IMG/VR virus record: IMGVR_UViG_3300045988_014597
Coordinates: 1-34,082 of that record
Length of the DNA: 34,082 nt
Direction: 5' to 3' (one strand)
DNA from: a virus
Lineage: Duplodnaviria; Heunggongvirae; Uroviricota; Caudoviricetes
This document shows positions 11,034 to 34,082 of this stretch, piece by piece (within the stretch, counting starts at the first letter, position 1; every line of letters begins with the position of its first letter). Made by a program: the position numbers and the translations under genes. Under the pieces are notes generated by a model that did no database searches, had not been told where the DNA came from, and saw nothing but the letters and a program-made list of their open reading frames with translations.

Positions 11034-11709
11034 GATTAGCCTCGTAAACTGCTTTTGCGAAACCCCGCGGAGTAAGGCTGCGGATTGTTTTTGTCCGCAC
11101 TGATTTACCGCCTAATTTATTGTGTTGGTCTGAGTACCCATCACCAACGGCAACACATGATTTAACGGGCATAACAAAACCGTTACCAGCCCAAATACAT
11201 GTCTTCTTAGGGTACGCGTCCCGAGGTTTTATGTATTCAGGGAACATTGGATGCGTGTCGTCTTCCGGTAAATACCCGCCGTATTCGTACGGATTGAATA
11301 CATAATCAGGCTTACGCCATAAAGACGAAAGAACGCTAACCGGGTTCTCAATCATATAAGGTACGTTGTACTTTTTAGCAAGACGCGCCGCCACTTTGCA
11401 TGTAATCACGGCCTCTACCTGAAACGTTGGATTCTTCTTCCGTTTCGTTTCGAAATGCGCAGCACCACTAACGGCTAAATCTGTGCACGGAGGGAACGCG
11501 AAAATAATATCCGGCGCAACGTCGAAGTCGAATTTATTATCAATCCACGCGTTTATATAGTGGATGTTCTCGTGTTCAACTTTCGAACCCAATCGCGCGT
11601 AGTCGCCGTGGTCGGCACCGTCGTAGTTGAAACAATAGCAAGTATGGCCCGCTTCTGCCCACGGTTGGGCCATGAGGCCCGAACCGTCGAACAATGACCA
11701 GATAATCAT
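11026..11709 (-). CDS. Compact DNA (cytosine-5) methyltransferase-like protein, 227 aa
   Basis: C5-methyltransferase signature order: motif I LFDGSG, PC motif FAFPPCTDLAVSG, ENV-like motif MIENP, C-terminal RSLTPRGFAKAV resembling motif IX. Very short, so the target-recognition domain must be minimal. Confidence 0.6.
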   Translation of the reverse strand: MIIWSLFDGSGLMAQPWAEAGHTCYCFNYDGADHGDYARLGSKVEHENIHYINAWIDNKFDFDVAPDIIFAFPPCTDLAVSGAAHFETKRKKNPTFQVEAVITCKVAARLAKKYNVPYMIENPVSVLSSLWRKPDYVFNPYEYGGYLPEDDTHPMFPEYIKPRDAYPKKTCIWAGNGFVMPVKSCVAVGDGYSDQHNKLGGKSVRTKTIRSLTPRGFAKAVYEANHV

Positions 11710-15275: not shown

Positions 15276-15338
15276 AGTTCAGCCCTCATTAAGTTTAGAT
15301 TTTAAGTTTACTCCGGGAACTGCCCGGCCAGTGATTTA

Positions 15339-15368
15339 ACTATAATAGCTTACTATTCAGGTTGTCAA
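15339..15368 (-). promoter_or_regulatory. Family A sigma70-like promoter (TTGACA-N18-TATAGT) with embedded palindrome GAATAG-N4-CTATT
   Basis: Reverse strand reads TTGACAACCTGAATAGTAAGCTATTATAGT; palindrome at 15344-15357. A CCGGG-N5-CCCGG hairpin at 15313-15327 lies in the 5' leader. Confidence 0.6.
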
Positions 15369-17562: not shown

Positions 17563-17593
17563 TTGTTTCTCTCCTCTCGTTTGGTATGGGCTA

Positions 17594-17623
17594 ACTATAA
17601 TAGCAAACTATTCATGTTGTCAA
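17594..17623 (-). promoter_or_regulatory. Family A sigma70-like promoter (TTGACA-N18-TATAGT) with embedded palindrome (T)GAATAG-N4-CTATT
   Basis: Reverse strand reads TTGACAACATGAATAGTTTGCTATTATAGT; palindrome at 17599-17612. Divergent from the HTH gene promoter. Confidence 0.6.
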
Positions 17624-17687: not shown

Positions 17688-17903
17688 ATGCAACCATCTG
17701 AACTAGGCATCCGTGTAGAACAACGCCGCAAAGAACTCGGCATCTCCCAGCGCCGTCTGGCCGTCCTGGCTGGCGTTTCCCAGGGCGCAATTAACCAGCT
17801 GGCACTTGGGGTAACTCAGGACGTCCGCCCGGCGACGCTGTTCAAACTGGCGGAAGTGCTGCAAGTAGACGCCAAGTGGCTGGCGTTAGGTGAAGGGGCT
17901 TAA
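17688..17903 (+). CDS. XRE-family helix-turn-helix transcriptional regulator (Cro/CI-like), 71 aa
   Basis: LGISQRRLAVLAGVSQGAINQLALG helix-turn-helix; AAGGAG RBS; sole + strand gene inside the reverse-strand replication module. Confidence 0.85.
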   Translation: MQPSELGIRVEQRRKELGISQRRLAVLAGVSQGAINQLALGVTQDVRPATLFKLAEVLQVDAKWLALGEGA

Positions 17904-17920: not shown

Positions 17921-20188
17921 CTATTCTAAATCCTCCTCTGTCACCACCAGCATTTCATTCGGTTCGTATATTGTCTTCGGTATTTTGTTGTCCGTTATCC
18001 GGGTGTTCAGCCTGTAACGGCCCGGTATTATCTGATTGTTTTCGTCTGTTCCAGGTACAAGATACCCGGCCTCAACCATTTTCTTAATCTTCCCGCGTTC
18101 TATGGCTTCTTTGGAGTTAAACGCCTTCGCGTTGGGGTCAGACTGTGCCAGCTTATTCGCTGCGGCCACCGTGATACCTTCGTTGCCGTTGTAGGTTCCT
18201 TCGGCCAGTTCAAACGCTGCCAGTATCGTGGCCTCCGAACTGTTGACAGCGTTCTCTACGGTTTTGCGTACGTTTTCTTTACCTTCCTTTGTCAGCCCTT
18301 CTTCGCGCTCTTTCTCCTCGTCAGTTTTGAACGGTTCGAAGCCCCACGGCATTAACACAAGTGCCTTATGTGGTTCTGGCAGGTCCAGGTTTACGATTGC
18401 GCCGTATTCCTCTGTGTTACCCAGGAACTCAACCGCGCGATACTCTTTCGGCGGCGGTGCTTCGCGGAACTGTACCGACTCCAGAACCATGCCAACCGTC
18501 TTCTGCTGAGGCCCGTGCTTAAATTTCGAGTGGTATACGTTTATCTGTCGGTCGGTGGCGCGTTCGATTGTTAGTTCGACGTCAACACCAGCATACAACG
18601 CCCCACTGCCACGGGCTTTCTTTCCGCCTTTCGGTGTGTGGTGAACAACGCCTACCGCGGCTTTAGTCGCATCGCGTACTTCTTTCAGGATGGCGATAAC
18701 TTTACCCATGCCGATTGCCGTCGATGAACTGTTCTCGTCGAACTTATCAATCGTCAGGGCCAACGTCTGGTTAAGGGTGTCGAACGCAACCATGCCGATT
18801 GGTTCATCGCCAGCGGTTTCGCGCATTAGCTTAATCAGGCTTTTAAGTTTGCCGACCTCACCCATGTCGATGACATGTACGTAATCTTTACCTTCCTCGC
18901 CGTATTTAGCCGCGAGCGCGTCAATACGTGTACGCGTAGCGGCACCGCCCTCGCCGTCGATATAGAAATGGTGGCAACGCTGGGTGTCCGCCCCCGCAAA
19001 CCGGTATCCGGCGGCGCTAAGGTACATCATCCCCAGCGTATAGAATGATTTGTACGTGCCGGATTCCCCGACGATATCCCAGATACAATCCGACGGCATG
19101 TACCCTTCGACGACGAAATCAGCCTTTACCGGTTCCGGTAATTCGTCCCCCTCTGAGTCCTCGTCGTCTTCCAGGTCGTCCAGGCTGCATGAGACGGATT
19201 CACGCGCGCCCCAACCGATGGCCTCCGCGACTTCACTGAACGGCAGCCCGGTCGCATCGCACGCATATTTCCACACCTCTTTCGGCGACATGCCTTCGGT
19301 AGCCGTAATGTCGGTGTCGTGAATCATGGTCACGTTCGGCGCTTCGTATCCTTCACGCGGGAAGCACAGCAGGAAGTCGTCCGGGCGCGGGGTCGGGTCG
19401 CTGTAGTTCTCTGCGTGTTCCGGTGTAGCTGGCATCTTAAGGCCGCGTGGCGTCATGATACCGCCGTACTCAAACGCCAGTGCCTCGAACGCATCAGTAA
19501 ACGCGGTGCGCAGTTCTTCCGGTATCTGGTAATCAGATGCGCTGCTCACCTCGTAATCCGGGATGCCTTCCAGTAATTCGTCCGGGTCAATCAGGTCATT
19601 GCGACGCGACCAGATAACGGTAGAGCCGACCGGCGGCAGGTACATCGGCTGTGACAGAGTGAACCCGCTGCGGTCCGCGCCCATGCCTTTGAAGAAGTGC
19701 TCCAGCAATCCGTGGCGGGCGCGGATGATGTCACCGCCTTCGACAGGGCGGCCCAGCGGCATGACGACGCGAAAGCGCGGGGACTCGTCGGTATGTGATG
19801 CCGTGGTATAGAGGCACATCGCACGGCGGCTACGCTTAACCAGGCGCACCGCTTCCTGGTACTCTTCCGGCGTTGCGCTGTCAAAGTCCAGATACGCCAG
19901 CGATGATTTACTTACAGACGCATCACAGCGGTAAAAGAAGCCTTTACGCGCTTGCTTAAAGTCTCCAGTTTCCGGGTCTTTTACGGTGCTGTGCGTAGAG
20001 TCGCACGCGGCGGTGATATAGCCGGGTGCGGTCTTAGGGTTAATCCCGTCGCGAACGGCATCGAGCGGCTGAATTAACTCTTTCAGGCCGTCCAGGGTTG
20101 CCGTATGGGTGGTTCTGACGTTTATATCCTTTTTCTCTGCCCGCGCGTTGCGGCGGGACCACGAGTAGGATAAAATTACATCGGACAT
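17921..20188 (-). CDS. Bifunctional DNA primase/helicase (AEP primase-polymerase N-domain plus RecA-like helicase), 755 aa
   Basis: AEP-like LAYLDFDSA (DxD) and CLYTTASH motifs N-terminally; Walker A GESGTYKSF and Walker B-like MVAFDTLNQ centrally. Confidence 0.8.
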   Translation of the reverse strand: MSDVILSYSWSRRNARAEKKDINVRTTHTATLDGLKELIQPLDAVRDGINPKTAPGYITAACDSTHSTVKDPETGDFKQARKGFFYRCDASVSKSSLAYLDFDSATPEEYQEAVRLVKRSRRAMCLYTTASHTDESPRFRVVMPLGRPVEGGDIIRARHGLLEHFFKGMGADRSGFTLSQPMYLPPVGSTVIWSRRNDLIDPDELLEGIPDYEVSSASDYQIPEELRTAFTDAFEALAFEYGGIMTPRGLKMPATPEHAENYSDPTPRPDDFLLCFPREGYEAPNVTMIHDTDITATEGMSPKEVWKYACDATGLPFSEVAEAIGWGARESVSCSLDDLEDDEDSEGDELPEPVKADFVVEGYMPSDCIWDIVGESGTYKSFYTLGMMYLSAAGYRFAGADTQRCHHFYIDGEGGAATRTRIDALAAKYGEEGKDYVHVIDMGEVGKLKSLIKLMRETAGDEPIGMVAFDTLNQTLALTIDKFDENSSSTAIGMGKVIAILKEVRDATKAAVGVVHHTPKGGKKARGSGALYAGVDVELTIERATDRQINVYHSKFKHGPQQKTVGMVLESVQFREAPPPKEYRAVEFLGNTEEYGAIVNLDLPEPHKALVLMPWGFEPFKTDEEKEREEGLTKEGKENVRKTVENAVNSSEATILAAFELAEGTYNGNEGITVAAANKLAQSDPNAKAFNSKEAIERGKIKKMVEAGYLVPGTDENNQIIPGRYRLNTRITDNKIPKTIYEPNEMLVVTEEDLE

Positions 20189-20245
20189 ATTATAATTCCT
20201 TCAGCAAGTAATTTGGCCTCGGCGCCCTAACGTCGGGGCTTTCTT

Positions 20246-20695
20246 TTATTCAGCGTTTGGTACTGCAAGAGCATACACGCCATCCAGCACCTTAATCAAC
20301 AAACCTTTTTTACAAAGCCCGCGCATGGCGGTACAGACATCACCAAGATTAGTGACATCATCTTTTACCATGGCGTATACCGCACTAGGCGTAAAACGTT
20401 GTCCTTGCTGTTCAAGACATTTTCCATAGACTAATTTTTGTAACTCCGTAAGTTGGCCCTTCTCGGGAAAAGGAACGGATATAACATTGGATGGTTTCCC
20501 ACCTTTAACCCAATACAGGTACTTACTCCCATCATAAACACGGTCTATCTCCCCGAAATACCCAAGCAATGAAATCGCGGCGCTAATTGGCCCGTCGAGT
20601 TCTATTGCAGATTTAATGTCATGCAGTGACGCTCCCGGGTTCTCGGCTAATATCATATTTAACGATTTAAGAAACTCGTCTAAGTATTTATGCAT
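20246..20695 (-). CDS. Hypothetical protein, 149 aa, possibly winged-helix DNA-binding
   Basis: Second gene of the reverse-strand operon; C-terminal region resembles a winged helix. Weak assignment. Confidence 0.55.
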   Translation of the reverse strand: MHKYLDEFLKSLNMILAENPGASLHDIKSAIELDGPISAAISLLGYFGEIDRVYDGSKYLYWVKGGKPSNVISVPFPEKGQLTELQKLVYGKCLEQQGQRFTPSAVYAMVKDDVTNLGDVCTAMRGLCKKGLLIKVLDGVYALAVPNAE

Positions 20696-20831
20696 TCTTC
20701 TTAGCCTCTCTTAATTGTTTGCGATATGCATTGAAACATTCACGGCAATAACTGCGTGTGCCTTTTCTGTCATATCGTTTGAGGAATGCACCTTCTTCTT
20801 TTTCTTTCCTACACATCTGGCAAATCTTCAT
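20688..20831 (-). CDS. Small zinc-ribbon protein, 47 aa
   Basis: MKICQMCRKEKEEGAFLKRYDRKGTRSYCRECFNAYRKQLREAKKNA with two CxxC pairs; strong GAGGAG RBS; stop overlaps the downstream ATG. Confidence 0.45.
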   Translation of the reverse strand: MKICQMCRKEKEEGAFLKRYDRKGTRSYCRECFNAYRKQLREAKKNA

Positions 20832-20849
20832 CTAAATACTCCTCGGCGG

Positions 20850-20878
20850 TTGAAGTACCCAATATAATGGTACTTCAA
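20850..20878. promoter_or_regulatory. Perfect 10 bp inverted repeat flanking a TATAAT-containing core (candidate operator and bidirectional promoter core)
   Basis: TTGAAGTACC-CAATATAAT-GGTACTTCAA. Confidence 0.5.
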
Positions 20879-20889
20879 GCAAAAAGCAA
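20861..20889 (-). promoter_or_regulatory. Candidate sigma70 promoter (TTGCTT-N17-TATATT) for the reverse-strand replication operon
   Basis: Reverse strand: -35 from 20884-20889, -10 from 20861-20866. Confidence 0.4.
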
Positions 20890-20926
20890 CAACAAAGTTA
20901 CTAAGATACAAAAGATGCTACTGATA

Positions 20927-20955
20927 TTGACTTTTCACTGAAAATATGCTAAGCT
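20927..20955 (+). promoter_or_regulatory. Strong sigma70-like promoter with extended -10 (TTGACT-N17-TGC-TAAGCT), copy 1
   Basis: TTGACT at 20927-20932, TG at 20947-20948, TAAGCT at 20950-20955. Confidence 0.6.
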
Positions 20956-21037
20956 CCACCTGAGCTTGTGAAGTATGAACAAGCGACCGCGGTGCGGCAG
21001 GAGAACGGAGCGGTGCGTTAGCACTGAGTGTAGTGTC
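20927..21037 (+). repeat. Dispersed direct repeat R1 (promoter plus conserved leader), about 110 bp
   Basis: Aligns with 33971-34082. The first ~66 nt differ at 2 positions; the remainder has two single-base indels and more substitutions. Confidence 0.85.
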
Positions 21038-21155
21038 GCTGCCCGCATTCGGAAGGCCCATAGTCTATTGTTAATCCAGCCTAAATACCCAAGTCACTGA
21101 TAATTAAAAGTTTCTATAGTTGCCGTGAGCAATGTAGAGAGTACTTCACTCCGCT

Positions 21156-21177
21156 GGGGTGGGCTAACGCCCACCCC
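21156..21177 (+). other. GC-rich hairpin GGGGTGGGC-TAAC-GCCCACCCC
   Basis: Perfect 9 bp stem with a 4 nt loop. No immediate U-tract, so either a weak terminator or an RNA structural element downstream of R1. Confidence 0.4.
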
Positions 21178-21235
21178 CTGCGTTGCGTACTCTTTTAAGA
21201 AACGAAAGAATCACAACGGCAACGTAACTATTCTC

Positions 21236-21264
21236 TTGCACACCCCAACATAATAGGATACTAT
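21236..21264 (+). promoter_or_regulatory. Family B sigma70-like promoter (TTGCAC-N17-TACTAT) with embedded palindrome AATAG-N4-CTATT
   Basis: Palindrome at 21252-21265; the promoter, leader and start share about 63 of 66 positions with the reverse-strand copy near 33841-33904. Confidence 0.6.
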
Positions 21265-21298
21265 TCACTTATCGAAACGAGACATAAGGAATTTAGAA

Positions 21299-21517
21299 AT
21301 GAACAAAGCGACCGCAAGCGTAGTTTCCGCAATCAAAGAAGTTTACGGCATCGATATTTCAGAGCGCGTAATCATCGGTAATAAGCGCAACTTCTTTACG
21401 TTCGACACCGACGGAATGGATGAAAATGATTTTATCAACGTACAACGTTTCGCTAATGATAGAGGGCTTCGTAACGAGCCTGCAGGTTACAAGAAATTCG
21501 CTATCTACTTTAAATAA
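21299..21517 (+). CDS. Hypothetical protein, 72 aa
   Basis: First ORF after the family B promoter; AAGGA RBS. Confidence 0.6.
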   Translation: MNKATASVVSAIKEVYGIDISERVIIGNKRNFFTFDTDGMDENDFINVQRFANDRGLRNEPAGYKKFAIYFK

Positions 21518-21535
21518 GACAGAGGAGTGATGGTT

Positions 21536-21724
21536 ATGTTTAAGAAGGGTCAGTTGGTCAAAGCTGTAAATAGCAATTATTTCATTGTTGAAAGCGAGTC
21601 TGCAGTTTTTCCGAGGGCTTATAGAGTAAGTTTTATACGGGAAAGATTAGGAGCGGTAACTTGGTTCCGTGAAGATGAGCTAACACTCATCGGCAACAAT
21701 TTTAAATTCAAAGGGGCGAAGTGA
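21536..21724 (+). CDS. Hypothetical protein, about 62 aa
   Basis: GAGGAG RBS at 21522-21527; ATG at 21536 preferred over the GTG at 21527. Confidence 0.5.
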   Translation: MFKKGQLVKAVNSNYFIVESESAVFPRAYRVSFIRERLGAVTWFREDELTLIGNNFKFKGAK

Positions 21725-21978
21725 TGGAAGAATTAATTTGTATTGAATCTGGTCCAGATGTGCGGCATTGGTTTGTAAAAGGTAACAAGTATTCGTCAGG
21801 GGTATATTACGACGGCCGTCGATACGTTTTAGATGAAGACGGTGATGAATGGGACTTAGAGCAATCACATGGTGAAGCCTTTACCGTGAATTTCCTGGGC
21901 ACACCCGCCATAACATTCACAACGGCATCGAATCATGATGCTCGTGCCGATGACTCTGAGGGAGGTTGCCGTGGATAA
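21724..21978 (+). CDS. Hypothetical protein, about 84 aa
   Basis: ATG overlaps the upstream TGA. Confidence 0.5.
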   Translation: MEELICIESGPDVRHWFVKGNKYSSGVYYDGRRYVLDEDGDEWDLEQSHGEAFTVNFLGTPAITFTTASNHDARADDSEGGCRG

Positions 21979-22000
21979 TATTTTAATGGTGGAGGTTGAT

Positions 22001-33655: not shown

Positions 33656-33841
33656 TTAGGCCTTACGAATTGTATACCCATACCCAAGGTAGCCGTTTTT
33701 CTCTTGCATAGCGGAGGCGCGAAGCAGAGCAGCATTCTCACCTTTAACTACGGCGACCACATAATCGGTAGCGTCCGGACCGTTTTCTACAACTTCATAC
33801 GCCTGTACGTTCTTGGTGGTAAGTTCATATGTGTTAGTCAT
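33656..33841 (-). CDS. Hypothetical protein, 61 aa
   Basis: Driven by a family B promoter and leader that matches the + strand cassette at 21236-21301. Confidence 0.55.
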   Translation of the reverse strand: MTNTYELTTKNVQAYEVVENGPDATDYVVAVVKGENAALLRASAMQEKNGYLGYGYTIRKA

Positions 33842-33875
33842 TTCTAAATTCCTTATCTCTCGTTTCGATAAGTGA

Positions 33876-33904
33876 ATAGTACCCTATTATGTTGGTGTGT
33901 GCAA
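33876..33904 (-). promoter_or_regulatory. Family B promoter (TTGCAC-N17-TACTAT) with embedded palindrome GAATAG-N4-CTATT
   Basis: Reverse strand reads TTGCACACACCAACATAATAGGGTACTAT; palindrome at 33874-33888. Confidence 0.6.
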
Positions 33905-33970: not shown

Positions 33971-33999
33971 TTGACTTTTCACTAAAAATGTGCTAAGCT
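33971..33999 (+). promoter_or_regulatory. Strong sigma70-like promoter with extended -10 (TTGACT-N17-TGC-TAAGCT), copy 2
   Basis: Same architecture as 20927-20955; preceded by the perfect palindrome CTATTCGAATAG at 33959-33970. Confidence 0.6.
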
Positions 34000-34082
34000 C
34001 CACCTGAGCTTGTGAAGTATGAACAAGCGACCGCGGCGCGGGCAGGTAACGGAGCGGGACGTAAGTCCTGAGTGTAGTTACG
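33971..34082 (+). repeat. Dispersed direct repeat R2 (promoter plus conserved leader), truncated by the window end
   Basis: Aligns with 20927-21037. Confidence 0.85.

Follow-up and report, generated by a model that had tools for sequence, protein, structure and literature searches.

A conserved inverted repeat around the -10 hexamer of a predicted leftward replication promoter in a Kagunavirus-like phage: a candidate cassette-specific operator

The head of the leftward replication operon in the phage DNA studied here carries an inverted repeat of 10-N9-10 structure at positions 20850–20878. We propose, with moderate confidence, that this palindrome is a single, cassette-specific operator placed around the -10 hexamer of the predicted leftward promoter P_L, where a protein encoded in the same cassette would bind and occlude the promoter. 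The sequence analyzed (here called the window) is a stretch of 34,082 nucleotides from a Kagunavirus-like (Guernseyvirinae) siphophage of E. coli, and it matches 226 GenBank records of E. coli and Salmonella phages. An earlier note on this DNA described a perfect 10-bp inverted repeat about 50 bp upstream of the rightward promoter R1, overlapping what it took as the best promoter candidate for the replication operon on the reverse strand. Our results agree with this description: the two arms are 100% complementary, they bracket the -10 hexamer of P_L, and the -35 hexamer of R1 begins 49 bp to the right of the palindrome. Coordinates of the features are collected in Table 1.

Table 1. Palindrome, predicted promoter elements, adjacent genes and AATAG-type sites in the window.
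Feature	Position	Strand	Sequence	Remarks
Upstream (promoter-proximal) arm	20869..20878	.	GGTACTTCAA	= TTGAAGTACC on the - strand; lies between the two P_L hexamers, at about -24 to -15 (assuming +1 near 20854)
Spacer of the palindrome	20860..20868		CAATATAAT on +, ATTATATTG on -	9 bp; holds the -10 hexamer
Downstream arm	20850..20859	.	TTGAAGTACC on +	From sequence; about -5 to +5 of P_L, predicted transcription start included
P_L -10 hexamer	20861..20866	-	TATATT	Predicted; read from sequence
P_L -35 hexamer	20884..20889	-	TTGCTT	Predicted; 17 bp upstream of the -10 hexamer
RBS	20839..20842	-	GGAG	7 nt ahead of the ATG of the first gene; conserved
First leftward gene	20688..20831	-		47-aa CxxC...CxxC Zn-ribbon protein with basic C-terminal helix; from translation
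Second gene	20246..20695	-		149-aa orphan protein with two predicted winged-helix domains; from translation
AATAG-N4-CTATT sites	11935, 15344, 17599, 17644, 21252, 22349, 22518, 25411, 31475, 33875, 33966			Several promoter-like

On the minus strand to the left of the palindrome, the 47-aa gene is followed by the overlapping 149-aa gene and by the primase-helicase gene, and beyond the latter lie genes for an exonuclease, a Gp2.5-like SSB, a family-A DNA polymerase, a methyltransferase and an SNF2 helicase. P_L would start this leftward early or replication unit, whose first members encode the Zn-ribbon protein, the 149-aa winged-helix protein and the primase-helicase. In a related phage, RNA-seq places an HTH gene, K1B4_008, among the early genes and an AAA gene, K1B4_005, among the middle genes (PMC12645636). 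By gene order we take K1B4_008 to correspond to the first gene of the leftward unit, and we take K1B4_005 to be the helicase-primase. Two leftward promoter-like sites of the AATAG type are located further downstream of P_L, at 15337–15368 and 17592–17623. A G+C-rich hairpin at 20215–20240, between the 149-aa and primase-helicase genes, has a T-run only on the plus strand, antisense to both genes; it could be a stop for antisense transcription, or separate early from later genes as a site of processing or attenuation.

The hexamers of P_L and their spacing, which falls in the 16–18 bp range, are those of a sigma-70-type promoter. The -35 hexamer TTGCTT agrees with the consensus TTGACA at 3 of 6 positions and the -10 hexamer TATATT agrees with its consensus at 5 of 6. 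Because the -35 hexamer has only three matches, P_L is missing from a generic promoter and terminator scan with a threshold of 9 of 12 matching positions. The terminator part of the scan does not list the palindrome, and no U-run or T-run follows the stem on either strand; we therefore rejected an intrinsic terminator as a description of the palindrome. Among related phages, the distance between the -35 and -10 hexamers is exactly 17 bp in 25 of 25 loci, which comprise three unrelated downstream sequences, and the -35 hexamer reads TTGC(T/C/A)T in every locus examined. At the -10 position, relatives with the Zn-ribbon gene have TATCTT, TATATT or TATAGT, and those with a different cassette containing an HTH gene have TATACT. 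Specifically, six Kagunaviruses with the HTH cassette (L002 and L006–L010) carry TTGCTT and TATACT, locus L012 carries TTGCCT and TATATT, and L025, the most divergent relative, carries TTGCAT and TATAGT, in all cases with 17 bp in between. This comparison strongly backs P_L as a predicted promoter for the host RNA polymerase, and we consider the assignment well supported. P_L does not fit the MerR type of promoter, in which the dyad lies within an over-long spacer of 19–20 bp: its hexamers are 17 bp apart, and its dyad reaches beyond the -10 hexamer. The TATAAT on the plus strand (20863–20868, within the palindrome spacer), which had been regarded as the core of the element, turns out to be incidental, as relatives have GATAAT or GATAGC there and the conserved -10 hexamer reads on the minus strand.

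The palindrome is the sole perfect inverted repeat with arms of at least 10 bp and a spacer of at most 20 bp in the 34-kb window. One or more such repeats are present in 41% of dinucleotide shuffles of the window, at a mean of 0.79 per shuffle. Consequently, the palindrome alone is not beyond chance, and its significance rests on its position and conservation. The half-site is not enriched in the window, with 27 occurrences at up to two mismatches compared to 27.8 expected. The window and the complete genome of the related phage ST20 each contain the dyad a single time, and in neither of them are there extra copies of the palindrome or half-sites beyond chance. An exact-arm search of IMG/VR returned only one true relative and one unrelated A+T-rich phage. 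In the contig of the latter (L004, IMGVR_UViG_3300023313_000018), the same arms surround a different spacer at 11467–11495, within a 63-aa ORF, and we take this match as a product of chance. A search with the core pattern in 185,579 species genomes yielded 45 matches in unrelated bacteria, which is approximately the chance level by our own rough estimate of a few tens, and none of the matches was enterobacterial, which argues against a host regulon site. To our knowledge, none of the consensus sites of LexA, CRP, FNR, Fur, DnaA and IHF fits the palindrome. A literature search with the half-site sequence returned only primers and shRNAs.

Conservation was assessed in 18 loci, representing 14 distinct sequences, that contain both the Zn-ribbon and the 149-aa genes; they include the GenBank phages ST20 and GZMU_E2010, one IMG/VR contig, and metagenomic contigs. 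Among the 14 distinct relatives, 1 of the 20 columns in the arms is variable compared to 38 of 106 other intergenic columns. This difference is significant (p = 0.007 by Fisher’s exact test). The upstream arm is invariant in 14 of 14 relatives, and the only change in the downstream arm affects its outermost base in one of the 14 (L021). The spacer is variable at 4 of its 9 positions in the 14 aligned relatives, or at 5 of 9 when L025 is counted. Six spacer variants were found, which read ATTATATTG, ATTATCTTG, ATTATCTTA, GCTATCTTA, ATTATATTA and AGTATAGTG on the minus strand. In all six, spacer positions 3, 4, 5 and 8 are T, A, T and T (TATnnT on the minus strand), and these invariant bases are the -12, -11, -10 and -7 positions of the -10 hexamer.

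Most of these relatives are close (76–97% protein identity), which limits the power of the conservation analysis, and the argument leans on the two divergent loci L012 and L025. In L025 the upstream flank is 59% and the leader 50% identical to the window, which is approximately what an optimized alignment of random sequences would give. The palindrome is nevertheless identical at 24 of 29 positions in this locus, with 9 of 10 bases kept in the upstream arm and 8 of 10 in the downstream arm, and both the 9-bp spacer and the -35/-10 register are unchanged. The Zn-ribbon gene of L025 is 74% identical to that in the window and its protein is 83% identical. Judged from these alignments, it is well supported that the arms are constrained more than the surrounding non-coding DNA. 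Two features expected of an operator are found here: the dyad overlaps the core promoter, and the half-sites appear to be selected independently of the spacer.

The distribution of the palindrome follows that of the genes downstream. It is present in 19 of 19 loci with the Zn-ribbon gene, L025 included, and absent from the six inspected relatives with the HTH cassette (L002, L006–L010). In the HTH cassette, a 56–62-aa Xis/MerR-like HTH gene and one or two small genes replace the Zn-ribbon and 149-aa genes. Of the 226 GenBank records with a match to the region, just 2 have the Zn-ribbon cassette. From 20877 to the right, most Kagunaviruses match the window at approximately 90% identity; to the left they have an unrelated cassette. 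The mosaic homology breakpoint is located at about 20877–20884, within or next to the -35 hexamer of P_L and just outside the right arm of the palindrome. The head of the operon can be described as a swappable regulatory cassette, in which the -35 hexamer is common and the -10 hexamer with its dyad is exchanged together with the first two genes. No dyad of this sort was found when P_L of the HTH-type cassettes was searched, so we do not extend the operator model to every cassette. The suggestion in the earlier note that the palindrome is the binding site of a second regulator is in line with these results, as the arms are conserved, there is one copy only, and among the inspected loci the element accompanies one particular pair of downstream genes and no other.

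From this arrangement we infer that a protein binds the palindrome, that it is one encoded in the cassette, and that repression is the effect. A dimeric phage protein from the same exchangeable cassette would bind both 10-bp arms. The bound dimer would cover P_L from about -24 to +5, including the -10 hexamer and the start site, and RNA polymerase would be excluded from the promoter. The outcome could be negative autoregulation (feedback) or a temporal, early shut-off of P_L and the first genes of the replication unit.

The two genes at the head of the operon provide the candidates for the binding protein. Comparisons of the 47-aa gene among relatives give 3–12 synonymous and 0–4 non-synonymous codon differences per comparison, and judged from these counts the protein is clearly under purifying selection as a stand-alone product. 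Its AF2 model consists of a zinc ribbon and a basic helix (pLDDT 83). Searches of Pfam, PHROGs, NCBIfam and PDB assigned it to no significant family and matched it to no known transcription factor. In PHROG it weakly matches the zinc-binding N-terminus of HNH/EndoVII nucleases (E between 1e-5 and 3e-4); its distant relatives are the N-termini of HNH proteins, with 43–51% identity over about 35 residues; and the best structural match by TM score, to the N-terminal region of PacI, is not significant (TMq 0.73, E 4.6). The 149-aa protein has no match in Pfam, PHROG, NCBIfam or PDB sequences, and an exhaustive HMMER search of 1.8 billion representatives returned close homologues only and no distant ones. 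The mean pLDDT of its AF2 model is 66, with a confident C-terminal winged helix and a low-confidence N-terminal part, and its fold matches are weak (E ≥ 0.01) and fall on wHTH domains of the Fur, MecI/BlaI, ArsR and PhoB types. These models make DNA-binding folds plausible for both proteins.

The first 42 residues encoded by the second gene of L025 have no similarity to the 149-aa protein, nor did we detect homology to this protein in any second gene, whether of L025 or of the other cassettes. Since L025 retains the Zn-ribbon protein and the dyad while its second gene differs, this single case favors the Zn-ribbon protein as the partner of the palindrome. The 47-aa protein is therefore probably the better candidate for the binder and the 149-aa protein the second. 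We advance only tentatively, as a possibility on the doubtful side, the fuller notion that the 47-aa Zn-ribbon protein represents an undescribed type of phage repressor, which would bind the 10-N9-10 site as a dimer, autoregulate its own operon, and move with its operator as one Guernseyvirinae cassette that replaces the Xis/MerR-like HTH gene. If the 47-aa protein does bind, it would add a new DNA-binding regulator of very small size, with an apparent origin in the zinc module of a nuclease; if it is not the binder, the palindrome would be an ordinary operator. The transcription programme of the Kagunavirus/Guernseyvirinae group is almost unmapped, and the model would supply a promoter, an operator and a regulator at the point where the replication genes begin in these virulent, therapeutically used coliphages.

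Other explanations of the palindrome have to be weighed against the operator. It could be a site associated with a replication origin, where a cassette-specific initiator such as the 149-aa protein binds beside an A+T-rich tract and transcription from P_L or R1 helps to open the DNA. The location would suit such a role, as the palindrome is found where the replication genes begin and two promoters diverge, and adjoins a conserved A-rich tract (20879–20926), with the gene for the tandem winged-helix protein next to the primase-helicase gene. The homology breakpoint just outside the right arm also fits, and the initiator/origin cassettes of lambdoid phages, in which the two travel together, provide a precedent. 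The earlier note named a recombination site as another possibility, for which the breakpoint could likewise count although only a single repeat is present. However, an origin of the iteron type would have several initiator sites, and only one dyad was found in the window and the whole ST20 genome, without an iteron array, DnaA boxes or a second genome copy. The dyad is moreover centred exactly on the conserved -10 hexamer, a placement required of an operator but not of an origin, and it is kept in L025, whose second gene begins with unrelated sequence. A minimum of the cumulative GC skew near 21 kb merely tracks the switch in gene strand. We consider an origin unlikely. We assign a similarly low probability to the notion that the palindrome has no separate function and is either a chance repeat at an ordinary promoter or the site of a host factor, and that it looks conserved because the relatives are close. 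The frequency of such repeats in the shuffled windows and the lack of half-site enrichment are consistent with this notion, as is the identity of over 83% that most relatives show in the neighbouring gene; yet the arms vary much less than the non-coding DNA nearby, and they persist in L025 despite its nearly random flanks.

The remaining explanation, which we regard as less likely still, is that base pairing between the two arms underlies the function of the palindrome, either as a leader stem-loop at the 5' end of a leftward mRNA that starts further upstream or as a cruciform or single-stranded DNA hairpin. Leader stem-loops can serve in stability, processing or translation control. The predicted RNA hairpin has a folding energy of -20.4 kcal/mol in a 70-nt context (z = -3.6) and the predicted DNA hairpin one of -9.7 kcal/mol (z = -6.0); the spacer is A+T-rich as well, and a weak leftward promoter-like match is present upstream (20972–20943). 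That match, however, decays to CACATT in most relatives, and the start predicted for P_L lies inside the downstream arm, so that the mRNA would lack the stem. The loop would hold the invariant TATnnT with a -35 hexamer at 17 bp, and a loop needs neither. The palindrome also shows neither of the marks of a structured RNA: no relative has a compensatory double change, the one-sided changes in the arms break pairs (the terminal base in L021; positions 1, 4 and 10 in L025), and a search of 20000–22000 at E ≤ 1 gave no Rfam match. The operator remains the explanation that we favor.

The region to the right of the palindrome contains elements of a different kind. R1 is a strong rightward promoter (TTGACT-17-TAAGCT, 20927–20955) and is followed by a conserved non-coding structured RNA; promoter and RNA together span 20927–21180, and a second copy at 33971–34082 is truncated by the end of the window. 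The two copies are direct repeats, 88% identical over 108 nt, and the region matches the 226 Guernseyvirinae records. The hairpins of the R1 RNA show compensatory changes at 6 pairs over 9 sequences (e.g., GTGC/GCAC, GGGC/GCCC and GGAC/GTCC), a coding role is ruled out by 1-nt indels, and the region has no Rfam match in the 20000–22000 search (E ≤ 1). A G+C hairpin at 21155–21177 may end the RNA. The location of the copies after early promoters recalls cis-acting antitermination RNAs such as put of HK022, an analogy that could bear on their function. The start of the R1 RNA, ATGAACAAGCGACCGC (20975–20990), approximately repeats the start of a 72-aa ORF, ATGAACAAAGCGACCGC (21299–21315), and the likeness could be a remnant of duplication or an element of pairing or mimicry. 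Nine metagenomic (Logan) contigs (L012, L014, L015, L017, L018, L020–L022 and L024) terminate inside the R1 repeat, 125–220 bp upstream of the Zn-ribbon gene, probably because assembly broke at this two-copy element.

The same genome contains another set of palindromes that overlap promoters. The window has 8 exact copies of AATAG-N4-CTATT and 3 copies with one mismatch, compared to 0.75 expected. A “phage promoter” motif, tgAATAGTa-ccTATTat-T, was reported by PHIRE analysis in the Kagunavirus fBC-Eco01 (PMC9825357), and by its sequence the AATAG-N4-CTATT element is this published motif. The Kagunavirus literature that we searched describes only promoters of this PHIRE/AATAG type. A gene for a 71-aa Cro/CI-type HTH_3 protein (17688–17903, plus strand) is flanked by two AATAG sites and is found subfamily-wide, in 484 records. 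The protein is the obvious candidate for the binder of the AATAG sites, and its distribution matches that of the universal AATAG sites and not that of the cassette-specific palindrome. A 67-nt inverted repeat with 96% complementarity (21236–21302 and 33838–33904, 12.5 kb apart) consists of a duplicated AATAG-type promoter, leader and first gene codons in opposite directions. The palindrome at P_L was described at the outset as distinct from the AATAG elements, and the latter indeed form a set of their own: they have a 5-N4-5 structure, 8–11 copies and a subfamily-wide distribution, whereas the palindrome is single, cassette-specific, of 10-N9-10 structure and different in sequence. The differences in copy number and distribution indicate that the two palindromes belong to different control circuits.

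Among known systems, Ogr of P2 and Delta of P4 are zinc-finger activators of late genes, which act at TGT-N12-ACA sites near -55. The resemblance consists in a small zinc-binding phage protein at a promoter dyad, with binding predicted in the present case, but the dyad described here is centred on the -10 hexamer and not near -55. The Ogr/Delta system was rejected as an identification, as the 47-aa protein has no Pfam match, Ogr_Delta included, and its site is on the -10 hexamer. The 47-aa protein likewise resembles the N-terminal Zn-ribbon of phage nucleases of the HNH and endonuclease VII types; unlike these nucleases, it is a stand-alone protein without the HNH catalytic motif, and a nuclease function is not implied.

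The closest parallels are operators that overlap the -10 hexamer and start site of sigma-70 promoters, such as the trp operator bound by TrpR, the LexA boxes, the KorA operators of IncP plasmids, and the operators of Cro/CI-type phage regulators. The palindrome shares with them a dyad on the core promoter and a single site near the gene of a small DNA-binding protein, and by analogy with them exclusion of RNA polymerase and autoregulation would be expected. It differs from them in sequence and in length, since at 29 bp (10-N9-10) it exceeds the operators typical of small dimers, and the candidate binder, a 47-aa Zn-ribbon protein or a tandem winged-helix protein, differs from the folds of Cro/CI, LexA and TrpR. 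Most likely, therefore, the palindrome is a promoter-embedded operator, a well-known kind of control element, served by a binding protein that has not been described previously.
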